Positions 4,768 to 9,955 of a stretch of 40,685 nt of DNA are shown here, piece after piece (position 1 is the stretch's first letter; every line of letters starts with the position of its first letter). Source of the DNA: a virus; IMG/VR virus record IMGVR_UViG_3300012979_000010, positions 1 to 40,685 of that record, one strand, 5' to 3'. The translations under genes and the position numbers were made by a program. The notes under the pieces were generated by a model. It was not told the origin of the DNA and did no database searches. It was given only the letters and a program-made list of their open reading frames with translations.

Positions 4768-5949
4768 TCATCCATTCTTCAAGTTATCAAGTATCGCGCG
4801 GATAGTTTCATCCGCGTGTTTTTTGTTGATTTTCACATAGGAAAAAATAGGTCTGTTACCCTTCATAGATTGCCCGATACAATACTCTATACGTTCAAGC
4901 GAAATGCCAAGTTCAAATCCATGTTGGGCGAATGATTTACGCGCGGTGTAGTATATCACATGAGTTTCAATTCCCAACGATTGCGCCAGGATGCCGATGT
5001 ACTTCGTTATGTACTTGCGCAAATTCTCATACGATAGCTTATACCCGAAATCAATCTTCCCATTTCTGCCCATATACCTTTTAATAATAGGCTTCGCTTC
5101 TTCGGGGATAGTAAAGCACACCTTCTTATCGTTTTTCTTGGTGTTTTTCGACTTCTGCCGCTCATATTCCATCGTTGTTTTCCCCTTGAAATTGTACGAA
5201 AGCAAATCAACCATGTTAATGCCGCCAAGATAATATGATAGCATAAACGCATCACGCGCCACAACAAGAGCCTTTGCTTTTGGATCTGAATCGCGGATAA
5301 GCCTTACTTCCTCTACTGATATATCAAGTTCGCGCACTGGAATGGTCGGTTTTTCGTAGTATGCAAAAGGGTGTGTGTCATATTTAACCATGTTGTCGCG
5401 GATTGCCTGGTTTATGACCGCCTTAAGATGCGCCATGTGCGTTCCTCGCGTGGAAGGATTGAGCGAAAGCGCACGCATCATGTATATGTCGAAGTCTTTA
5501 ATTGTTCTTGGGGTAATGCCGTCAAGCATGATATCGTGCTTGCAGAATTCAATAAAATACTTCGATGTCCTGGCATATAGTTGTGCGGTAGATTTCCGAC
5601 CTTCACGGATAAGTGTATCTATGTAATCGTCCGAAGCAAGCGAGTAGGAGGTGGAACCGCTCTTAATGGTGTGCAGATATTCGATAAGCTGCTTGCATGA
5701 GTATGCATGGGTGTTAATCTTATCAAGTGCTTCCTGGTACGAATTAAGAATTGAGCGCAGTTTCATATTTATATAAGGTGCGTTAGGCACATTGACTATC
5801 TGCCCTTGTTGAAGGTCATCGGGGTTGTCAAGCTCAAAGCGAGTTACGATGTATCGCGTTTGTTGGCGATGTCCTACTGCAATTCTGATTTTGTGTTTCC
5901 CAGCCTTGTTGATTTTGGCTGGAACGATGGCAATTCTTAAAGTTGTCAT
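4768..5949 (-). CDS. int: Tyrosine recombinase / phage integrase (Bacteroidetes type with an N-terminal arm-binding domain)
   Basis: 393 aa. The N-terminus MTTLRIAIVPAKINKAGKHKIRIAVGHRQQTRYIVT is typical of Bacteroidetes integrases. It has a SAM-like core-binding region, and the C-terminal catalytic region contains ...ARKSFAQHGFELGISLERIEYCIGQSM.... It lies next to a tRNA-derived attP. Confidence 0.9.
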   Translation of the reverse strand: MTTLRIAIVPAKINKAGKHKIRIAVGHRQQTRYIVTRFELDNPDDLQQGQIVNVPNAPYINMKLRSILNSYQEALDKINTHAYSCKQLIEYLHTIKSGSTSYSLASDDYIDTLIREGRKSTAQLYARTSKYFIEFCKHDIMLDGITPRTIKDFDIYMMRALSLNPSTRGTHMAHLKAVINQAIRDNMVKYDTHPFAYYEKPTIPVRELDISVEEVRLIRDSDPKAKALVVARDAFMLSYYLGGINMVDLLSYNFKGKTTMEYERQKSKNTKKNDKKVCFTIPEEAKPIIKRYMGRNGKIDFGYKLSYENLRKYITKYIGILAQSLGIETHVIYYTARKSFAQHGFELGISLERIEYCIGQSMKGNRPIFSYVKINKKHADETIRAILDNLKNG

Positions 5950-6083
5950 AATTCTGAAAGATTCGTTATGGTAAAGGTAACAATGCCAAAAGTGGAATTG
6001 TTCGGGAGTTTCCCGATTTTTCCCAAAAGCGAAAAAGAGGGTAGAATTGCCTTCAGATGTATGCAGAACCTTTTTTTTGGATG

Positions 6084-6130
6084 TGGAGCGTATCGGACTC
6101 GAACCGATTACCTCGACACTGCCAGTATGG
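6084..6130 (-). other. attP core: 3' half of a tRNA-Ala(GGC) (anticodon stem-loop to discriminator; no 5' half, no CCA)
   Basis: The minus strand reads ccata-CTGGCAG-tgtcg-aggta-ATCGG-TTCGAGT-CCGAT-ACGCTCC-A. This gives an anticodon loop with GGC, a 5-nt variable loop, a perfect T arm, and an acceptor 3' strand with T at position 70 and A73. No D arm or GGGGCGT 5' strand lies upstream. Confidence 0.7.
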
Positions 6131-7068: not shown

Positions 7069-7716
7069 TTACTTTGCAGATAGGCACATTAATACTTTAT
7101 ACATTGAATATATATCATCGTAGAATATGTCGAAATCGTCATAATCGGGGTTGATAGAGTGGCAAGTTATCCTATCATCGTGAATGCTCTTGCGCACGTT
7201 CTTAATTACTACACCATTGCAAGTGTCAAGAACGTATGTTTTCCCCCATTCAATAAATGAGTGGTGGTTTATCCTCTTTATTAGAATTCGGCTTCCATTA
7301 GGATATTCGGGTGTCATTGATTCGCCATATACGGTTATAGCGAAATCTACATTTTCTATTGGCGAAATAACTGCTTCACAATTTTGCAATGTTGTACCAT
7401 TTGCAGAAAATCCATCAAGGCTCCCACCTAAAGCTGATTGTGGTAGTAGATATGTAGTGTATATGCCAAGTTCCTTCAATTCCTCTTTGTTCCCTATATC
7501 TTCAAACATATCCCCTTCGCCAGTCATCAACCACGATGTTTTCACTTCGGGATATGCGTTCTTAATAATCTTGCAAAGGTCGGTACTGATGTTGTTTCTG
7601 CCGTTTAATACGTTCAGAATTCTTGTTTCTCTTTTAAGACCTATTGAACGTGCAAAGCTTGTTGGACTTTCAGCCAAATGCTCTAATAATTGCGATAGCC
7701 AGTGTACATATTTCAT
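7069..7716 (-). CDS. cI/LexA-like phage repressor with a C-terminal S24 autopeptidase domain
   Basis: The C-terminal half has VYGESMTPEYPNGSRILIKRIN...GKTYVLDTCNGVVIKNVRK, i.e. the S24 G(D/E)SM serine motif plus a downstream Lys. The N-terminal part is of HTH size. It is divergent from the early operon. Confidence 0.8.
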   Translation of the reverse strand: MKYVHWLSQLLEHLAESPTSFARSIGLKRETRILNVLNGRNNISTDLCKIIKNAYPEVKTSWLMTGEGDMFEDIGNKEELKELGIYTTYLLPQSALGGSLDGFSANGTTLQNCEAVISPIENVDFAITVYGESMTPEYPNGSRILIKRINHHSFIEWGKTYVLDTCNGVVIKNVRKSIHDDRITCHSINPDYDDFDIFYDDIYSMYKVLMCLSAK

Positions 7717-7791: not shown

Positions 7792-7810
7792 TTGATGTTG
7801 GTTATTGATG

Positions 7811-7818
7811 TATATTTG
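7811..7818 (+). promoter_or_regulatory. Bacteroides-type -7 box (TATATTTG) for the rightward early operon
   Basis: Matches TAnnTTTG. It lies between the repressor gene and the first rightward ORF. Confidence 0.4.
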
Positions 7819-7901
7819 CAACAAACAAACAAATGATGCAACAAAGAAACAATAAATAACGAGAAAAAGCAAAAAAGCAAGCTAATAAAAAAATACTAAT
7901 T

Positions 7902-8087
7902 ATGGAAGCAACAATTAAAAAACACTCAAAGAACGAATTTTATGTGAAGAAAATAAGAGGCGGTTTTTTCTGTATTATTAATGGATATGACAATAGTATG
8001 GAATCAATCGAATCAATGGAAGAAGCTGCATATAACTTATGCAATAAGTTGAACGAAATGAGAAATAAGAGATTAGGATTGAATTAA
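7902..8087 (+). CDS. First early-operon ORF (61 aa), hypothetical
   Basis: ORF track. It occupies the cro position, but no HTH was recognised. Confidence 0.55.
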   Translation: MEATIKKHSKNEFYVKKIRGGFFCIINGYDNSMESIESMEEAAYNLCNKLNEMRNKRLGLN

Positions 8088-8094
8088 TAACCAA

Positions 8095-8112
8095 GCACCC
8101 CTTCGGGGGTGC
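8095..8112 (+). terminator. GC-rich hairpin GCACCCC-TTCG-GGGGTGC (no U tract)
   Basis: Perfect 7-bp stem with a TTCG loop, 8 nt after the stop of the 61-aa ORF. Confidence 0.45.
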
Positions 8113-8128
8113 ATAAAGAAACAACGAT

Positions 8129-8317
8129 ATGAAAACTTTTAAGGCAATATTATTAGGCATGGCGATAGTTCTTACCATTGGCATAGCTGGTAAGTACGAT
8201 TGGGCGAGTGAGGTGTGCTACACAATGGAACGTAAGACCTACAACGAAATCAGCAAGAAGCTGAACACCCACAACGAAATTAAGATTGCGGAATACTACG
8301 TTGAGCATTACAAGTGA
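8129..8317 (+). CDS. Small membrane protein (62 aa)
   Basis: N-terminal hydrophobic helix AILLGMAIVLTIGIAG. Confidence 0.55.
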   Translation: MKTFKAILLGMAIVLTIGIAGKYDWASEVCYTMERKTYNEISKKLNTHNEIKIAEYYVEHYK

Positions 8318-8320
8318 TTG

Positions 8321-8660
8321 CGCGGAGTGCGTTCGGTGGATGCACGGAACGTACTCGGTGGAACCACCGAACAGATACGGCTCTTTTGCGAGTGCTATAT
8401 AATAAGTGGTTTTAGTTTCAAAGCCTTGTGATTGCTAAAGACAAGCACCCGATAGCGAGAATCGGCAAGGCGCGACTTGATTAGTTTTTTGACATTTTGA
8501 ATCTCTCTCATAAGGCACGAAAGTATAATTGCCGACTGGAAGGCAAGCCTACTACGATATAGTCCCGACAGGTCACGATTCCTGCAAGTAACCGTAAAAG
8601 GTTGTCGGGACACGAACAGAGAACTCATACTATTCATTATTACAAATTAGAAAGGTTAAT
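8321..8660 (+). ncRNA. Structured non-coding segment 1 (unknown class)
   Basis: Helices read directly. A 10-bp helix pairs 8325..8334 with 8347..8356 and includes a G:U. It competes with a 9-bp helix pairing 8331..8339 with 8364..8372. Hairpins lie at 8449..8465 and 8529..8546. A perfect 9-bp helix pairs 8562..8570 with 8603..8611. The segment is closed by the terminator at 8666..8695. Confidence 0.4.
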
Positions 8661-8665
8661 ATTCG

Positions 8666-8695
8666 CCGCTTGGTTCGAGAGAATAGAGCGGTTTT
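8666..8695 (+). terminator. Sibling terminator hairpin 1 (most divergent copy)
   Basis: CCGCT...AGCGG followed by TTTT. Confidence 0.5.
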
Positions 8696-8745
8696 AATTA
8701 GTAAAAAACGATTTTCATCATAGTATTTGTTATTAGGTTTTGTTT

Positions 8746-8776
8746 CCGCCTTGTCTGTGAAGATAGGGCGGCTTTC
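8746..8776 (+). terminator. Sibling terminator hairpin 2
   Basis: TTTCCGCCTT-gtctgtgaagat-AGGGCGG-CTTTCAA. Confidence 0.6.
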
Positions 8777-8778
8777 AA

Positions 8779-8885
8779 GGGGTAAGAGGTCAGCACAGAT
8801 TTAATTTACTCTTTTCCATTCAAAGTTATTTCTGATTACACCTATTTGCTGATGGATCTTGGTGGTTCGATTCCACCTACCCCAC
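8779..8885 (+). ncRNA. tRNA minihelix / tmRNA-like mimic A (acceptor stem plus T arm, no D or anticodon arm)
   Basis: T arm GGTGG-TTCGATT-CCACC at 8861..8877. TACCCC (8878..8883) pairs with GGGGTA (8779..8784). An inner helix pairs 8785..8795 with 8847..8859 and encloses a 51-nt AT-rich loop. Confidence 0.5.
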
Positions 8886-8942
8886 AATCAGATGTAACGC
8901 GTCTGATATTTGTAATTTAATTTTCATAATTTGAATTTGTTT

Positions 8943-8973
8943 CCGCCTTGCTCGCGATGAGTAGGGCGGTTTT
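8943..8973 (+). terminator. Sibling terminator hairpin 3
   Basis: TTTCCGCCTT-gctcgcgatgagt-AGGGCGG-TTTTCAA. Confidence 0.6.
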
Positions 8974-9009
8974 CAACAGACATTTATTAATCATTAAAAT
9001 ATAAGCGAT

Positions 9010-9150
9010 ATGGAAGAAATGAAGATGTTTTTTGAGCAGATTCGCAAGGAAGAACAAAGGCGGTCTGTTATGCAAGAGATTGACGAGATTGTTGATGACT
9101 TCAATCATGCGATTGATGAGATTCTTGATAAGCTGAAAGAAAAGAAATAG
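9010..9150 (+). CDS. Small acidic coiled-coil-like ORF (46 aa)
   Basis: MEEMKMFFEQIRKEEQRRSVMQEIDEIVDDFNHAIDEILDKLKEKK. It is the only plausible +strand ORF inside the island and is below the ORF-track cut-off. Confidence 0.4.
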   Translation: MEEMKMFFEQIRKEEQRRSVMQEIDEIVDDFNHAIDEILDKLKEKK

Positions 9151-9238
9151 GCTCGTAGGAGTTGCCAACGCAACCCAAGTTCGGTGGGTGGCAATAGCCA
9201 ATATCCGAAATTAAATCTGGACTGAATTTGCGTGAACG

Positions 9239-9348
9239 AAGCTGATTCCCCTACTTGGCAAGGGGCAGTAATCTGATAAGTACCGAGAATAAAGTAAGTC
9301 AGTGCGAAAGCATACACGTTCGGAATATCGGGAGTGAATAATCAGCTT
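9239..9348 (+). ncRNA. Closed structured RNA domain upstream of tRNA mimic B
   Basis: A perfect 9-bp closing helix pairs AAGCTGATT (9239..9247) with AATCAGCTT (9340..9348). Inside are the hairpin CCCCT/AGGGG (9248..9265) and a GAAA-tetraloop hairpin (9302..9313). Confidence 0.45.
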
Positions 9349-9352
9349 CTTT

Positions 9353-9428
9353 TCCCCTGCTATACGCGAATGGTAGCGCGAAGTGTAATACCTGGGAAAC
9401 AACGGTGGTTCGATTCCACCACAGGGGA
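9353..9428 (+). ncRNA. tRNA mimic B (acceptor, D-like arm and T arm; no anticodon arm)
   Basis: TCCCCTG (9353..9359) pairs with CAGGGGA (9422..9428). The D-like arm is CGCG-AATGGTAG-CGCG (9365..9380). The T arm at 9404..9420 matches mimic A over 17 nt. The 23 nt between the D and T arms form no anticodon stem. Confidence 0.5.
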
Positions 9429-9503
9429 CAACCAATTAGCGAATTGGGGTGTAGAATTAATGTTAGATGTTTAAGAGCATTACATTTTGGATGTATTATT
9501 TTC

Positions 9504-9533
9504 CCACCTCGCTTGTGAAAGTAGGGTGGTTTT
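9504..9533 (+). terminator. Sibling terminator hairpin 4 (carries a compensatory change)
   Basis: TTTCCCACCT-cgcttgtgaaagta-GGGTGG-TTTTCAA. The G:C pair of copies 2 and 3 is replaced by A:T. Confidence 0.6.
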
Positions 9534-9557
9534 CAAGGAACTTAAAAACAACAAGAT

Positions 9558-9758
9558 ATGAACCCATTTAAGAAGAAACAACAACAAGAAAAGAAGTACT
9601 ACTTGATAATACAATTTCAAGTAATCTACAAGGATGGTTCGCGCGACATCGTGAAGCTGAATGCTCCGATAGAGGTGGACAACGTGAACGATTTCCGCAT
9701 GAAGAAGAAAGCGGAATATCAATGTGAAGGTGTAAACTTAACGTATTACGAAGTATGA
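9558..9758 (+). CDS. Hypothetical protein (66 aa) with a Lys-rich N-terminus
   Basis: ORF track. Its stop overlaps the next start. Confidence 0.6.
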   Translation: MNPFKKKQQQEKKYYLIIQFQVIYKDGSRDIVKLNAPIEVDNVNDFRMKKKAEYQCEGVNLTYYEV

Positions 9759-9955
9759 AAGAAGTAACAGAAAATTGGGCGGTTCAGTTTCGCGAAATGA
9801 AAGTGAACGAGCAAGTGAAATGCCCAGCACGCAGCTATTGCGTAGTTAATGCAACCCTACACCGATTAGAGGTTGAGAGGTTGGACGAGAACGTGCAATA
9901 TTCAATGAGATTGAACAGAGAAGAAAAAACAATCATAGTAACAAGGACAGCATGA
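9755..9955 (+). CDS. Hypothetical protein (66 aa)
   Basis: ORF track, with ATGA-type overlaps on both sides. Confidence 0.6.
   Translation: MKEVTENWAVQFREMKVNEQVKCPARSYCVVNATLHRLEVERLDENVQYSMRLNREEKTIIVTRTA

Follow-up and report, generated by a model that had tools for sequence, protein, structure and literature searches.

In mitochondrial punctuation by transfer RNAs (tRNAs), as in engineered polycistronic tRNA-guide RNA arrays, RNase P and RNase Z excise the tRNA units and free their neighbours; the acceptor, the T arm and an elbow-type GG form the minimal substrate of RNase P, RNase Z and the CCA-adding enzyme. Synthetic minihelices that join an acceptor to a T arm are likewise model substrates of RNase P, the CCA-adding enzyme and some synthetases. 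Small tRNA-like structures are also excised from MALAT1 and MEN-beta, where a single cut by RNase P leaves the upstream RNA with a protected 3' end and at once creates the 5' terminus of a tRNA-like RNA of ~60 nucleotides (nt), which, in the case of mascRNA, is then finished by RNase Z and CCA addition (PMC8457004, PMC11693755). Outside tRNA precursors, RNase P also cuts the phage M3 RNA, C4 RNA and operon mRNAs (PMC11143913). Here we describe element A, ~107 nt at positions 8779-8885 (+ strand) of IMG/VR virus record IMGVR_UViG_3300012979_000010, the whole 40,685-nt stretch of which we refer to as the window. Our analysis indicates that A is a genuine acceptor-plus-T-arm, or 'top-half', tRNA mimic that is structurally conserved, and that it belongs to a large class found in the early regions of Bacteroidales-type temperate phages, in which a GNRA hairpin is followed by a tRNA-like element.

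Element A opens with GGGGUA (8779..8784), the 5' strand of an acceptor-like helix whose 3' strand, UACCCC (8878..8883), pairs with it perfectly (6/6) and abuts the T stem directly. Between these strands come, in order, a 5' linker AGAG (8785..8788), the 5' strand of an inner helix (GUCAGCA, 8789..8795), an AT-rich variable central domain of 51 nt (8796..8846), the 3' strand of the inner helix (UGCUGAU, 8847..8853), a 3' linker GGAUCUU (8854..8860) and the T arm (8861..8877), which has a 5-bp stem (GGUGG/CCACC), a 7-nt loop (UUCGAUU) and a closing pair of G53-C61 type. A discriminator-like A and then CA follow (8884..8886), and CCA is not encoded. An earlier note, made from the sequence alone, had described the T arm just so, and the perfect acceptor-like pairing that it proposed is reproduced by the minimum free energy (MFE) fold. 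This fold of 8779-8885 is a three-way topology at -30.3 kcal/mol (z = -2.9, with 1/200 shuffles equally good; z = -3.5 with flanks), in which the acceptor-like helix and the T stem are predicted to form an 11-bp coaxial stack. Two details of the note need amending: the inner helix, for which it listed six pairs, has seven, and the '51-nt loop' that it left open is instead predicted to fold as an irregular hairpin. Both the D arm and the anticodon arm are absent from the fold, as claimed; nevertheless G8788 and G8789 make a GG dinucleotide that is kept in homologues (see below), and this GG-containing 5' linker may stand in for the D loop in a tertiary role. Directly after A lies a trailer hairpin, AUCAGAUGU-AAC-GCGUCUGAU (8887..8907, +), flagged as terminator-like by a scan, which the note had rightly seen but placed one position off.

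Such an arrangement is not readily produced by chance. Only three T-arm matches occur in the window (A, a second tRNA-like element that we call B, and a tRNA-gene fragment near the integrase), and 280/300 dinucleotide shuffles contain none; a T arm with a perfect, abutting 6-nt closure occurs once in the window and in 0/300 dinucleotide shuffles. Element A thus has a canonical T arm (UUCRANY loop) abutting an end-formed acceptor, as expected of a tRNA, with an acceptor of 6 bp and not 7, and it is, as the note had argued, not a tRNA gene. Besides lacking the D and anticodon arms, it is passed over by both ARAGORN and Rfam: ARAGORN calls no tRNA or tmRNA (transfer-messenger RNA) anywhere in the window, and Rfam at gathering thresholds returns only a DUF2693-FD RNA there and nothing at element A. 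No match to the tRNA model RF00005 appears in 7800-9800 even at E <= 10, a level at which only the 17-nt T arm of A matches beta_tmRNA, with 12.7 bits against a threshold of 84. A tRNA with an intron was rejected, as the element is too short for one, has no anticodon stem and gives no RF00005 match. The sole internal open reading frame (ORF), of 22 codons from 8851 and overlapping the T arm, is not conserved and is absent in the diverged homologue L298, and we rejected a coding role for it.

How, then, does A compare with systems already described? The note had likened it to tmRNA, and as a matter of topology this holds: the tRNA-like domain of tmRNA has an end-formed acceptor (P1), an abutting T arm (P12), an internal helix (P2a) that replaces the D and anticodon arms, where A has its inner helix, and a short G-containing strand in the place of the D arm. 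However, the analogy is topological only and brings no specific kinship. Element A has G3:C70 and lacks a resume codon, a tag ORF and predicted pseudoknots; its acceptor has 6 bp where that of tmRNA has 7, its length is ~107 nt against ~360 nt, and it is a phage early-operon element with multiple paralogous forms. We rejected tmRNA on the grounds that G3:C70, and not G3:U70, is found in the window and in both diverged homologues and that no model called it; a tag frame was likewise rejected, as ARAGORN, which reports tag peptides, called no tmRNA. No pseudoknot was predicted in A, though MFE folding cannot show one. Like mascRNA, A is a small tRNA-like element inside a longer transcript, with structure upstream, and it could be processed in a comparable way; mascRNA, however, is eukaryotic and nuclear and keeps an anticodon-like stem, and the upstream RNA is protected by a triple helix in MALAT1 where a GNRA hairpin stands here, the two sharing no homology. 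The units of mitochondrial and engineered punctuation are functional tRNAs or full cloverleaves, whereas many of those described here are only the top half. The C4 RNA of P1 and P7 and the CI RNA of P4, small RNAs of temperate-phage early or immunity regions that are matured by RNase P and freed from a longer transcript by way of a tRNA-like acceptor end, resemble what is proposed for A, but lack a canonical T arm and have defined antisense loops and known targets (PMC11143913). YrlA and other Y RNAs share with A a non-coding nature, a T arm and a tRNA-like fold without an anticodon, but in YrlA a loop closes off the acceptor-like end, the termini form the Ro60-binding stem, and the genes lie beside rsr and rtcB (PMC4201824). 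We rejected a bacterial Y RNA, as Rfam gives no such match and the termini of A form the acceptor helix itself; none of the 30 window ORFs scanned has a Ro60 or RtcB domain. Element A is not a tmRNA, nor is it an attP fragment or a copy of a known host tRNA end.

Homologues of A were reached only by way of its neighbours, whose exact protein sequences were looked up in ENA and Logan assemblies. In two of these, L082 and L091, close variants are found (94-96% identical), whose changes, four substitutions and a 3-nt insertion, all lie in the central domain or the 3' linker and leave the helices untouched; one change in the central domain of L091 is possibly compensatory (U29-A45 to A29-U45). Two others, L298 and L305, hold diverged homologues (repressors 68% and 72% identical): the BLAST alignment (79%) is confined to the 3' part that begins at the T arm, and the central domain can barely be aligned. 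In both, the acceptor reads GGGGUU/AACCCC, with pair 6 changed from A-U to U-A, and the T stem GGCGG/CCGCC, with pair 3 changed from U-A to C-G. The inner helix of L298 is CGGUGUG/CACACCG in place of GUCAGCA/UGCUGAU, a change on both sides of 6/7 pairs (columns placed by structure). For the helices alone, all 18 pairs form in both the window and L298, eight of them changed on both sides, against slid controls that are 39-50% paired, and an independent MFE fold of the L298 element gives the same architecture and the same inner helix (z = -2.3 to -3.3). L305 retains just ~4 pairs of the inner helix, and there the MFE calculation prefers a different fold. The note had been prepared to give up the mimic if homologues did not conserve the acceptor and inner pairings; given the compensatory changes in the diverged homologues, its own refuting conditions do not refute it, with the acceptor and T-arm pairs kept by compensation throughout and the inner helix kept in L298, though mostly lost in L305.

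Around this paired core, other parts are conserved to different degrees. The extension of the inner helix by AGA/UCU that the note had included (8785-8787 with the UCU of the 3' linker) forms in the MFE fold of the window only and has no counterpart in L298 or L305; it is not conserved, since the 3' linker of L298 is reduced to only 0-1 nt. The GG of the 5' linker, on the other hand, persists, the sequence being AGAGG in the window, CCUGG in both diverged homologues and CUAUGGUAG in the families of shorter elements, or minis, described below. Position -1 carries A in the window but C in both L298 and L305. The stem sequence of the trailer hairpin is kept in L082, L091 and L298 with a different loop; L305 lacks the hairpin, and there 44 A-rich nt separate A from the beginning of the 46-aa ORF. 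Two further elements of similar design (L287 and L225, each with a long AT-rich insert and no D arm) could not be aligned with A and were excluded from the covariation analysis.

Searches by sequence had a different yield. No homologue of A or B turned up in IMG/VR, JGI metagenomes or GTDB genomes when these were scanned with exact and degenerate DNA patterns, three pattern matches in JGI metagenomes being chance. The 23 nt of T arm and acceptor 3' strand had no match in IMG/VR, and in the GTDB species genomes matched only three unrelated metagenome-assembled genomes, two of them Gemmatimonadota; no Bacteroidales genome among the representatives matched. Neither the A region nor the unit of hairpin and mini matched GenBank phages or PLSDB plasmids, and BLAST of A against 80 IMG/VR loci chosen solely by a relative of the ERF protein (hereafter the ERF-selected loci) gave T-arm-sized or hairpin-sized matches only.

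The element does not stand alone. A leader hairpin, T2 (CCGCCUUGUCU-GUGA-AGAUAGGGCGG, 8746..8771, +), precedes it by a 7-nt spacer, CUUUCAA (8772-8778), and is one of four copies of a single hairpin family in the window (8665-8692, 8746-8771, 8943-8969 and 9504-9529, +), with none elsewhere in the genome. The family is confined to the + strand of the early region and is defined by 11-13 bp, a GUGA, GCGA or GAGA loop and the apical consensus ..GKYYB-GNGA-VRRAUAG... R1, a covariance model that we built from hairpin-plus-mini units in IMG/VR, matches T2 with 30.7 bits (E 1.5e-6) and the hairpin T3 (8943..8969, +) with 17.2 bits (E 0.0055); applied to A it finds the hairpin and, separately, the T arm (16.6 bits), the 60-nt inserted hairpin not being bridged. 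T2 carries a compensatory change from UCU/AGA to CUU/AAG in L091, and in L298 and L305 its stem is wholly rewritten yet paired (CCGCCUUGUCU.. becoming CCUCUCCGUUC..), while T3 is kept in L082, L091 and L298. The hairpins at 8943-8969 and 9504-9529 directly precede ORFs. We rejected plain intrinsic terminators as an account of the upstream hairpins: many units have a linker that is not rich in U, and L298 and L305 leave just 4 nt between the leader stem and the start of the element. Rfam has no family for either the hairpin or the minis.

The same association recurs widely in related phages. Many T arms in the ERF-selected loci lie on the early strand upstream of ERF, and the 7 nt that follow them pair 7/7 with an upstream segment in 151/198 cases, compared with 117/594 offset controls. 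ARAGORN calls only a minority of these elements, and several of those that it does call show unusual anticodons or anticodon loops of 6 nt. Of the 27 unique hairpins that these loci contain, all lie on the early strand and 21 are followed by a T arm within 160 nt. A pattern scan of IMG/VR, in which the hairpin apical motif was joined to the T loop in two spacing ranges, matched at least 120 contig stretches in each range, a figure to be read in the light of a pattern that fixes part of the hairpin and T-loop sequence and of many near-duplicates among the matched contigs; among the matches listed, 91 and 39 units are unique in the two ranges. At equivalent positions these units hold true tRNAs, tRNA-sized genes with 6-nt anticodon loops, tRNAs with 25-60-nt inserts, and minis of 44-58 nt. 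A mini consists of a 6-bp acceptor, a 14-30-nt linker (often CUAUGGUAG, which is D-loop-like) and a T arm, without a D stem or an anticodon arm. Together with the frame of A, the minis look like the synthetic minihelices with a D-loop-like strand added, the minihelices themselves being laboratory constructs.

The pairing of these modules is well preserved. In an alignment of 19 hairpin-plus-mini sequences, 94% of cells are paired, as against 40-52% in slid controls, and 13 pairs are changed on both sides; acceptor sequences differ between families with pairing kept, which fits selection on shape and not on identity. Among hairpin-selected units, 40/60 show 6/6 acceptor closure, a value that falls to 17% with a shuffled 3' strand. 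An A and then a C follow the acceptor in 17 of 23 unique hairpin-linked elements (6 bp plus AC in six; 7 bp plus A in 11, where the next base is usually C), and A shares the end signature (A)GGGnnn...nnnCCC-AC with the minis AGGGCAU/AUGCCC-AC and AGGGCAC/GUGCCC-AC. Element A can be viewed as a mini whose linker holds a long inserted hairpin. The 42 nt upstream of tRNA or tRNA-like elements fold with a median of -10.5 kcal/mol, compared with -5.9 for shuffles and with -5.8 and -4.9 for windows elsewhere, the latter downstream; the gap between hairpin and element is 0-16 nt among the units. In one locus, L040, the stop codon of an ORF is followed by two successive hairpin-mini pairs, then by 19 nt of A-rich leader and an ATG. 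The best Rfam match of a phage mini is the MALAT1/mascRNA family, at a non-significant 14.2 bits, and in the literature that we searched we found no description of these elements or the hairpin, nor of natural minihelix-type genes in DNA phages.

Alongside these modules are larger tRNA-related genes. In L048-L065 and others, tRNA-sized genes share a conserved 6-nt anticodon loop, CAUG-UUUCUA-CAUG, reported by ARAGORN as 'tRNA-??? (tc)'; they come as two paralogues with different acceptor stems (for example L056 2521-2591 and L052 3333-3403). The phages that carry them also have a tRNA-Ser with the anticodon ACU, and tRNAs with 25-60-nt inserts that still reach 39-47 bits with the Rfam tRNA model. 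What appears to be another long non-canonical tRNA-like family is found in L220, L241, L253 and L268, where hairpin-preceded elements of ~102-106 nt have the form TGAGAGA...TCTCTCA-AC with the T arm GCAGG-TTCGACT-CCTGC, and their internal stems co-vary (CCCGAGG/CTCGGG versus CCCGG/CCGGG).

The setting of A is that of an early phage transcript. The window is a temperate phage, with an integrase gene (4768-5949, -) as marker and an S24 CI-like repressor gene (7069-7716, -) divergent from the early region; the + strand holds small ORFs and genes for a LuxR-type protein, ERF, an exonuclease, NinB, NinG, methylases and terminase. The host is probably one of the Bacteroidales, because of the DUF2693-FD RNA, the TAnnTTTG -7 box and a homologue of the repressor listed by NCBI under Bacteroides sp. 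A Bacteroides-type -7 promoter box, TATATTTG (7811..7818, +), is the sole + strand TAnnTTTG match between the repressor gene and 12167, and sits between that gene and the first early ORF at 7902. This box is the probable early rightward promoter and would feed the 7.8-9.6 kb region; as the only + strand -7 box there, it would place A, which sits in a ~1.2-kb ORF-poor non-coding stretch, on the early rightward transcript.

We tentatively favour, as a reading with somewhat less than an even chance of being right, that A works in cis as a processing handle: cleavage by RNase P and by an activity that processes tRNA 3' ends would set RNA ends shielded by hairpins. It would be transcribed within the early rightward transcript, with the GNRA hairpin ending 7 nt upstream; host RNase P would cut 5' of G8779, so that the RNA on the upstream side would have its 3' end protected by the hairpin. 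On the other side RNase Z or exonucleases would act, with CCA addition as the next step, and a cut after A8884 or C8885 would create a new 5' end for the downstream RNA. The excised tRNA-like RNA of ~107 nt would then be a by-product, possibly stable in itself. The analysis shows the structure, how it is conserved, its link with the hairpin and its genomic setting, whereas use of the promoter, both cleavages and any effect on stability are inferred. What A keeps, the acceptor, the T arm and an elbow-type GG, matches the minimal substrate of these enzymes; the decoding parts are gone. Mitochondrial punctuation and the MALAT1/mascRNA module would be the nearest analogues. The continuum from tRNA to mini, the varied acceptors, the upstream helices, the intercistronic sites (seen in L040 and L305) and the hairpins before ORFs together point to processing that depends on shape; it is the 'processing punctuation mark in the early transcript', one of several roles floated in the earlier note, that the context data favour.

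Several observations nevertheless sit uneasily with a processing handle. Tandem hairpin-mini units without coding sequence between them look redundant for punctuation and equally fit RNA products. Within single mini families, the linker and acceptor are strongly conserved (CUAUGGUAG; AGGGCAU), which could mean that a specific partner recognises them. With a stable helix sitting 4-7 nt before the proposed cleavage site, RNase P might be hindered and not helped, and the coaxial stack of A has 11 bp where the canonical one has 12. Furthermore, A in the window does not sit immediately between two ORFs, the next one lying 125 nt and two hairpins away.

Could A instead act in trans? As a CCA-tailed, stable small RNA it might occupy or divert a protein that reads the acceptor, T-arm and elbow surface, for which a tRNA-targeting defence nuclease or toxin, the CCA-adding enzyme, TruB, TrmA, EF-Tu and an aminoacyl-tRNA synthetase are candidates; the upstream hairpins would then merely be leaders or insulators. 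We consider this possible, if on the unlikely side. It would account for several different mimics per phage, including the tandem minis without an intervening ORF, and for acceptor and D-loop-like linker sequences that are conserved across many contigs within mini families. The neighbouring tRNA-sized genes with non-decoding 6-nt anticodon loops, kept in two paralogues with different acceptors, also suggest a tRNA-related role outside translation, and YrlA offers a bacterial precedent for a tRNA-like domain used in protein interaction (PMC4201824). On the other hand, a partner protein is not evident, the scanned window ORFs being recombination, Nin, methylase and structural proteins with none that is tRNA-related; acceptor sequences vary so widely between families that one specific target fits poorly; G3:C70 rules out charging of the AlaRS/tmRNA type; and the stable helix upstream of nearly every element is left unexplained. 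A bolder version, which we hold to be unlikely, is that temperate phages of Bacteroidales encode a natural repertoire of top-half tRNAs, from 44-nt minihelices to A, that are matured by the host, CCA-tailed and trans-acting. Such RNAs might serve as decoys for, or inhibit, tRNA-targeting immune systems or toxins that read the acceptor, T-arm and CCA end, or they might be chargeable minihelices that hijack a synthetase or EF-Tu.

Other readings sit further from the data. An antisense regulator of the C4/CI type, cut by RNase P, would use the central domain of A to pair with a target in the same transcript and so control translation or termination, and RNase P-matured regulatory RNAs do have phage precedent (PMC11143913). 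A constant frame with a variable centre resembles a guide scaffold, and a perfect 12-nt match does exist between 8796-8807 and 9208-9219 (+), 320 nt downstream, a length reached by 10/500 local shuffles; but the resulting p of ~0.02 comes from a post hoc test, and the match lies in a predicted stem and not a loop, falls to 11/12 nt without compensation in L082 and L091, and has to contend with a centre that differs in L298 and L305. As the far commoner minis have no central domain at all, and Rfam C4 (RF01695) gives no match at E <= 10, we regard such a regulator as improbable. Scarcely better placed, and if anything a shade less probable, is a decaying, functionless tRNA pseudogene, perhaps tRNA-Gln-like, stripped of its D and anticodon arms. 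Turnover of phage tRNA arrays is rapid, and real tRNA-Gln genes stand at comparable positions in related phages with a T arm like that of A in 19/21 nt; decay, however, would not keep the acceptor and T stems (and the inner helix of L298) paired by compensation despite an unalignable centre, nor direct all changes in the close variants away from the helices, nor make the truncated design recur with covariation in many independent families. Least credible, and to our minds almost dismissible, is a DNA-level role as attP core or decoy attachment site derived from the 3' end of a host tRNA gene. Phage att sites commonly hold a T arm and acceptor 3' strand, but this phage already has such a fragment beside its integrase (~6080-6125, -), and A lies 2.8 kb from the integrase gene, within the early operon; the 23-nt 3' half of A matches no Bacteroidales genome among GTDB representatives, and its 5' acceptor strand, for which a DNA site has no need, co-varies with the 3' strand.

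What gives element A its weight is the larger picture, in which tRNA-like modules preceded by a hairpin form a family. Both tRNA finders and Rfam are blind to these common elements, so that a sizeable class of structured RNA in the early regions of gut phages goes unannotated. Should they be processing handles, phages would have arrived independently at tRNA punctuation and pared it down to the minimal RNase P/Z substrate, and would offer a natural, host-matched toolkit for multiplexed RNA expression in Bacteroides; should they act in trans, they would constitute a new kind of RNA mimic in phage-host conflict. On either reading they are natural acceptor/T-arm minihelices, until now a laboratory construct and an evolutionary hypothesis, and they make it testable what the top half of a tRNA alone can do in a cell.

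The second tRNA-like element of the window, B (9354-9429, +), is tRNA-sized at 76 nt and is called by neither ARAGORN nor Rfam. Its acceptor is 7 bp long (with a C7xA66 mismatch in the window), its D arm reads CGCG-AAUGGUAG-CGCG and its 17-nt T arm is identical to that of A; at the position of the anticodon arm there is an unpaired 23-nt segment of conserved sequence (UAAUAYCUGGGAAWCA). Relative to L305, B shows one compensatory change in each of three stems. In L091 and L095 a mosaic breakpoint marks the 5' boundary of B, and in every lineage a helix ends 4-5 nt upstream of the element.

The remaining features lie around these elements. A tRNA-gene 3' fragment, ..ATCGG-TTCGAGT-CCGAT-ACGCTCC-A (~6080-6125, -), lies ~140 nt upstream of where the integrase gene starts and is probably the attP core, so that the window looks like an excised or circular form of the phage. 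The DUF2693-FD RNA (Rfam RF02926; 8422-8472, +; 49.4 bits against a threshold of 44.5) lies ~300 nt upstream of A, is also called by Rfam in L082 and L091, and is visible as a near-identical sequence in L298 and L305. Three GC-rich, ORF-free stretches with obvious long-range complementarity (8318-8420, 8520-8620 and 9150-9350, +), 97.5-100% conserved in close relatives and ~84% in L298, may be further structured RNAs of the early leader; in the last of them, GAAGCTGATT (9239-9248) pairs with AATCAGCTTC (9340-9349) in a helix that ends 4 nt before B. Between A and B the window has a 46-aa ORF (9010-9150, +), preceded by hairpin T3; between their A and B homologues, L082 holds ORFs of 138 aa and 101 aa and L298 an N6_Mtase gene and two more ORFs. 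In relatives the A-B interval is a gene-insertion hot spot, with tRNA-like elements and hairpins at the module boundaries.

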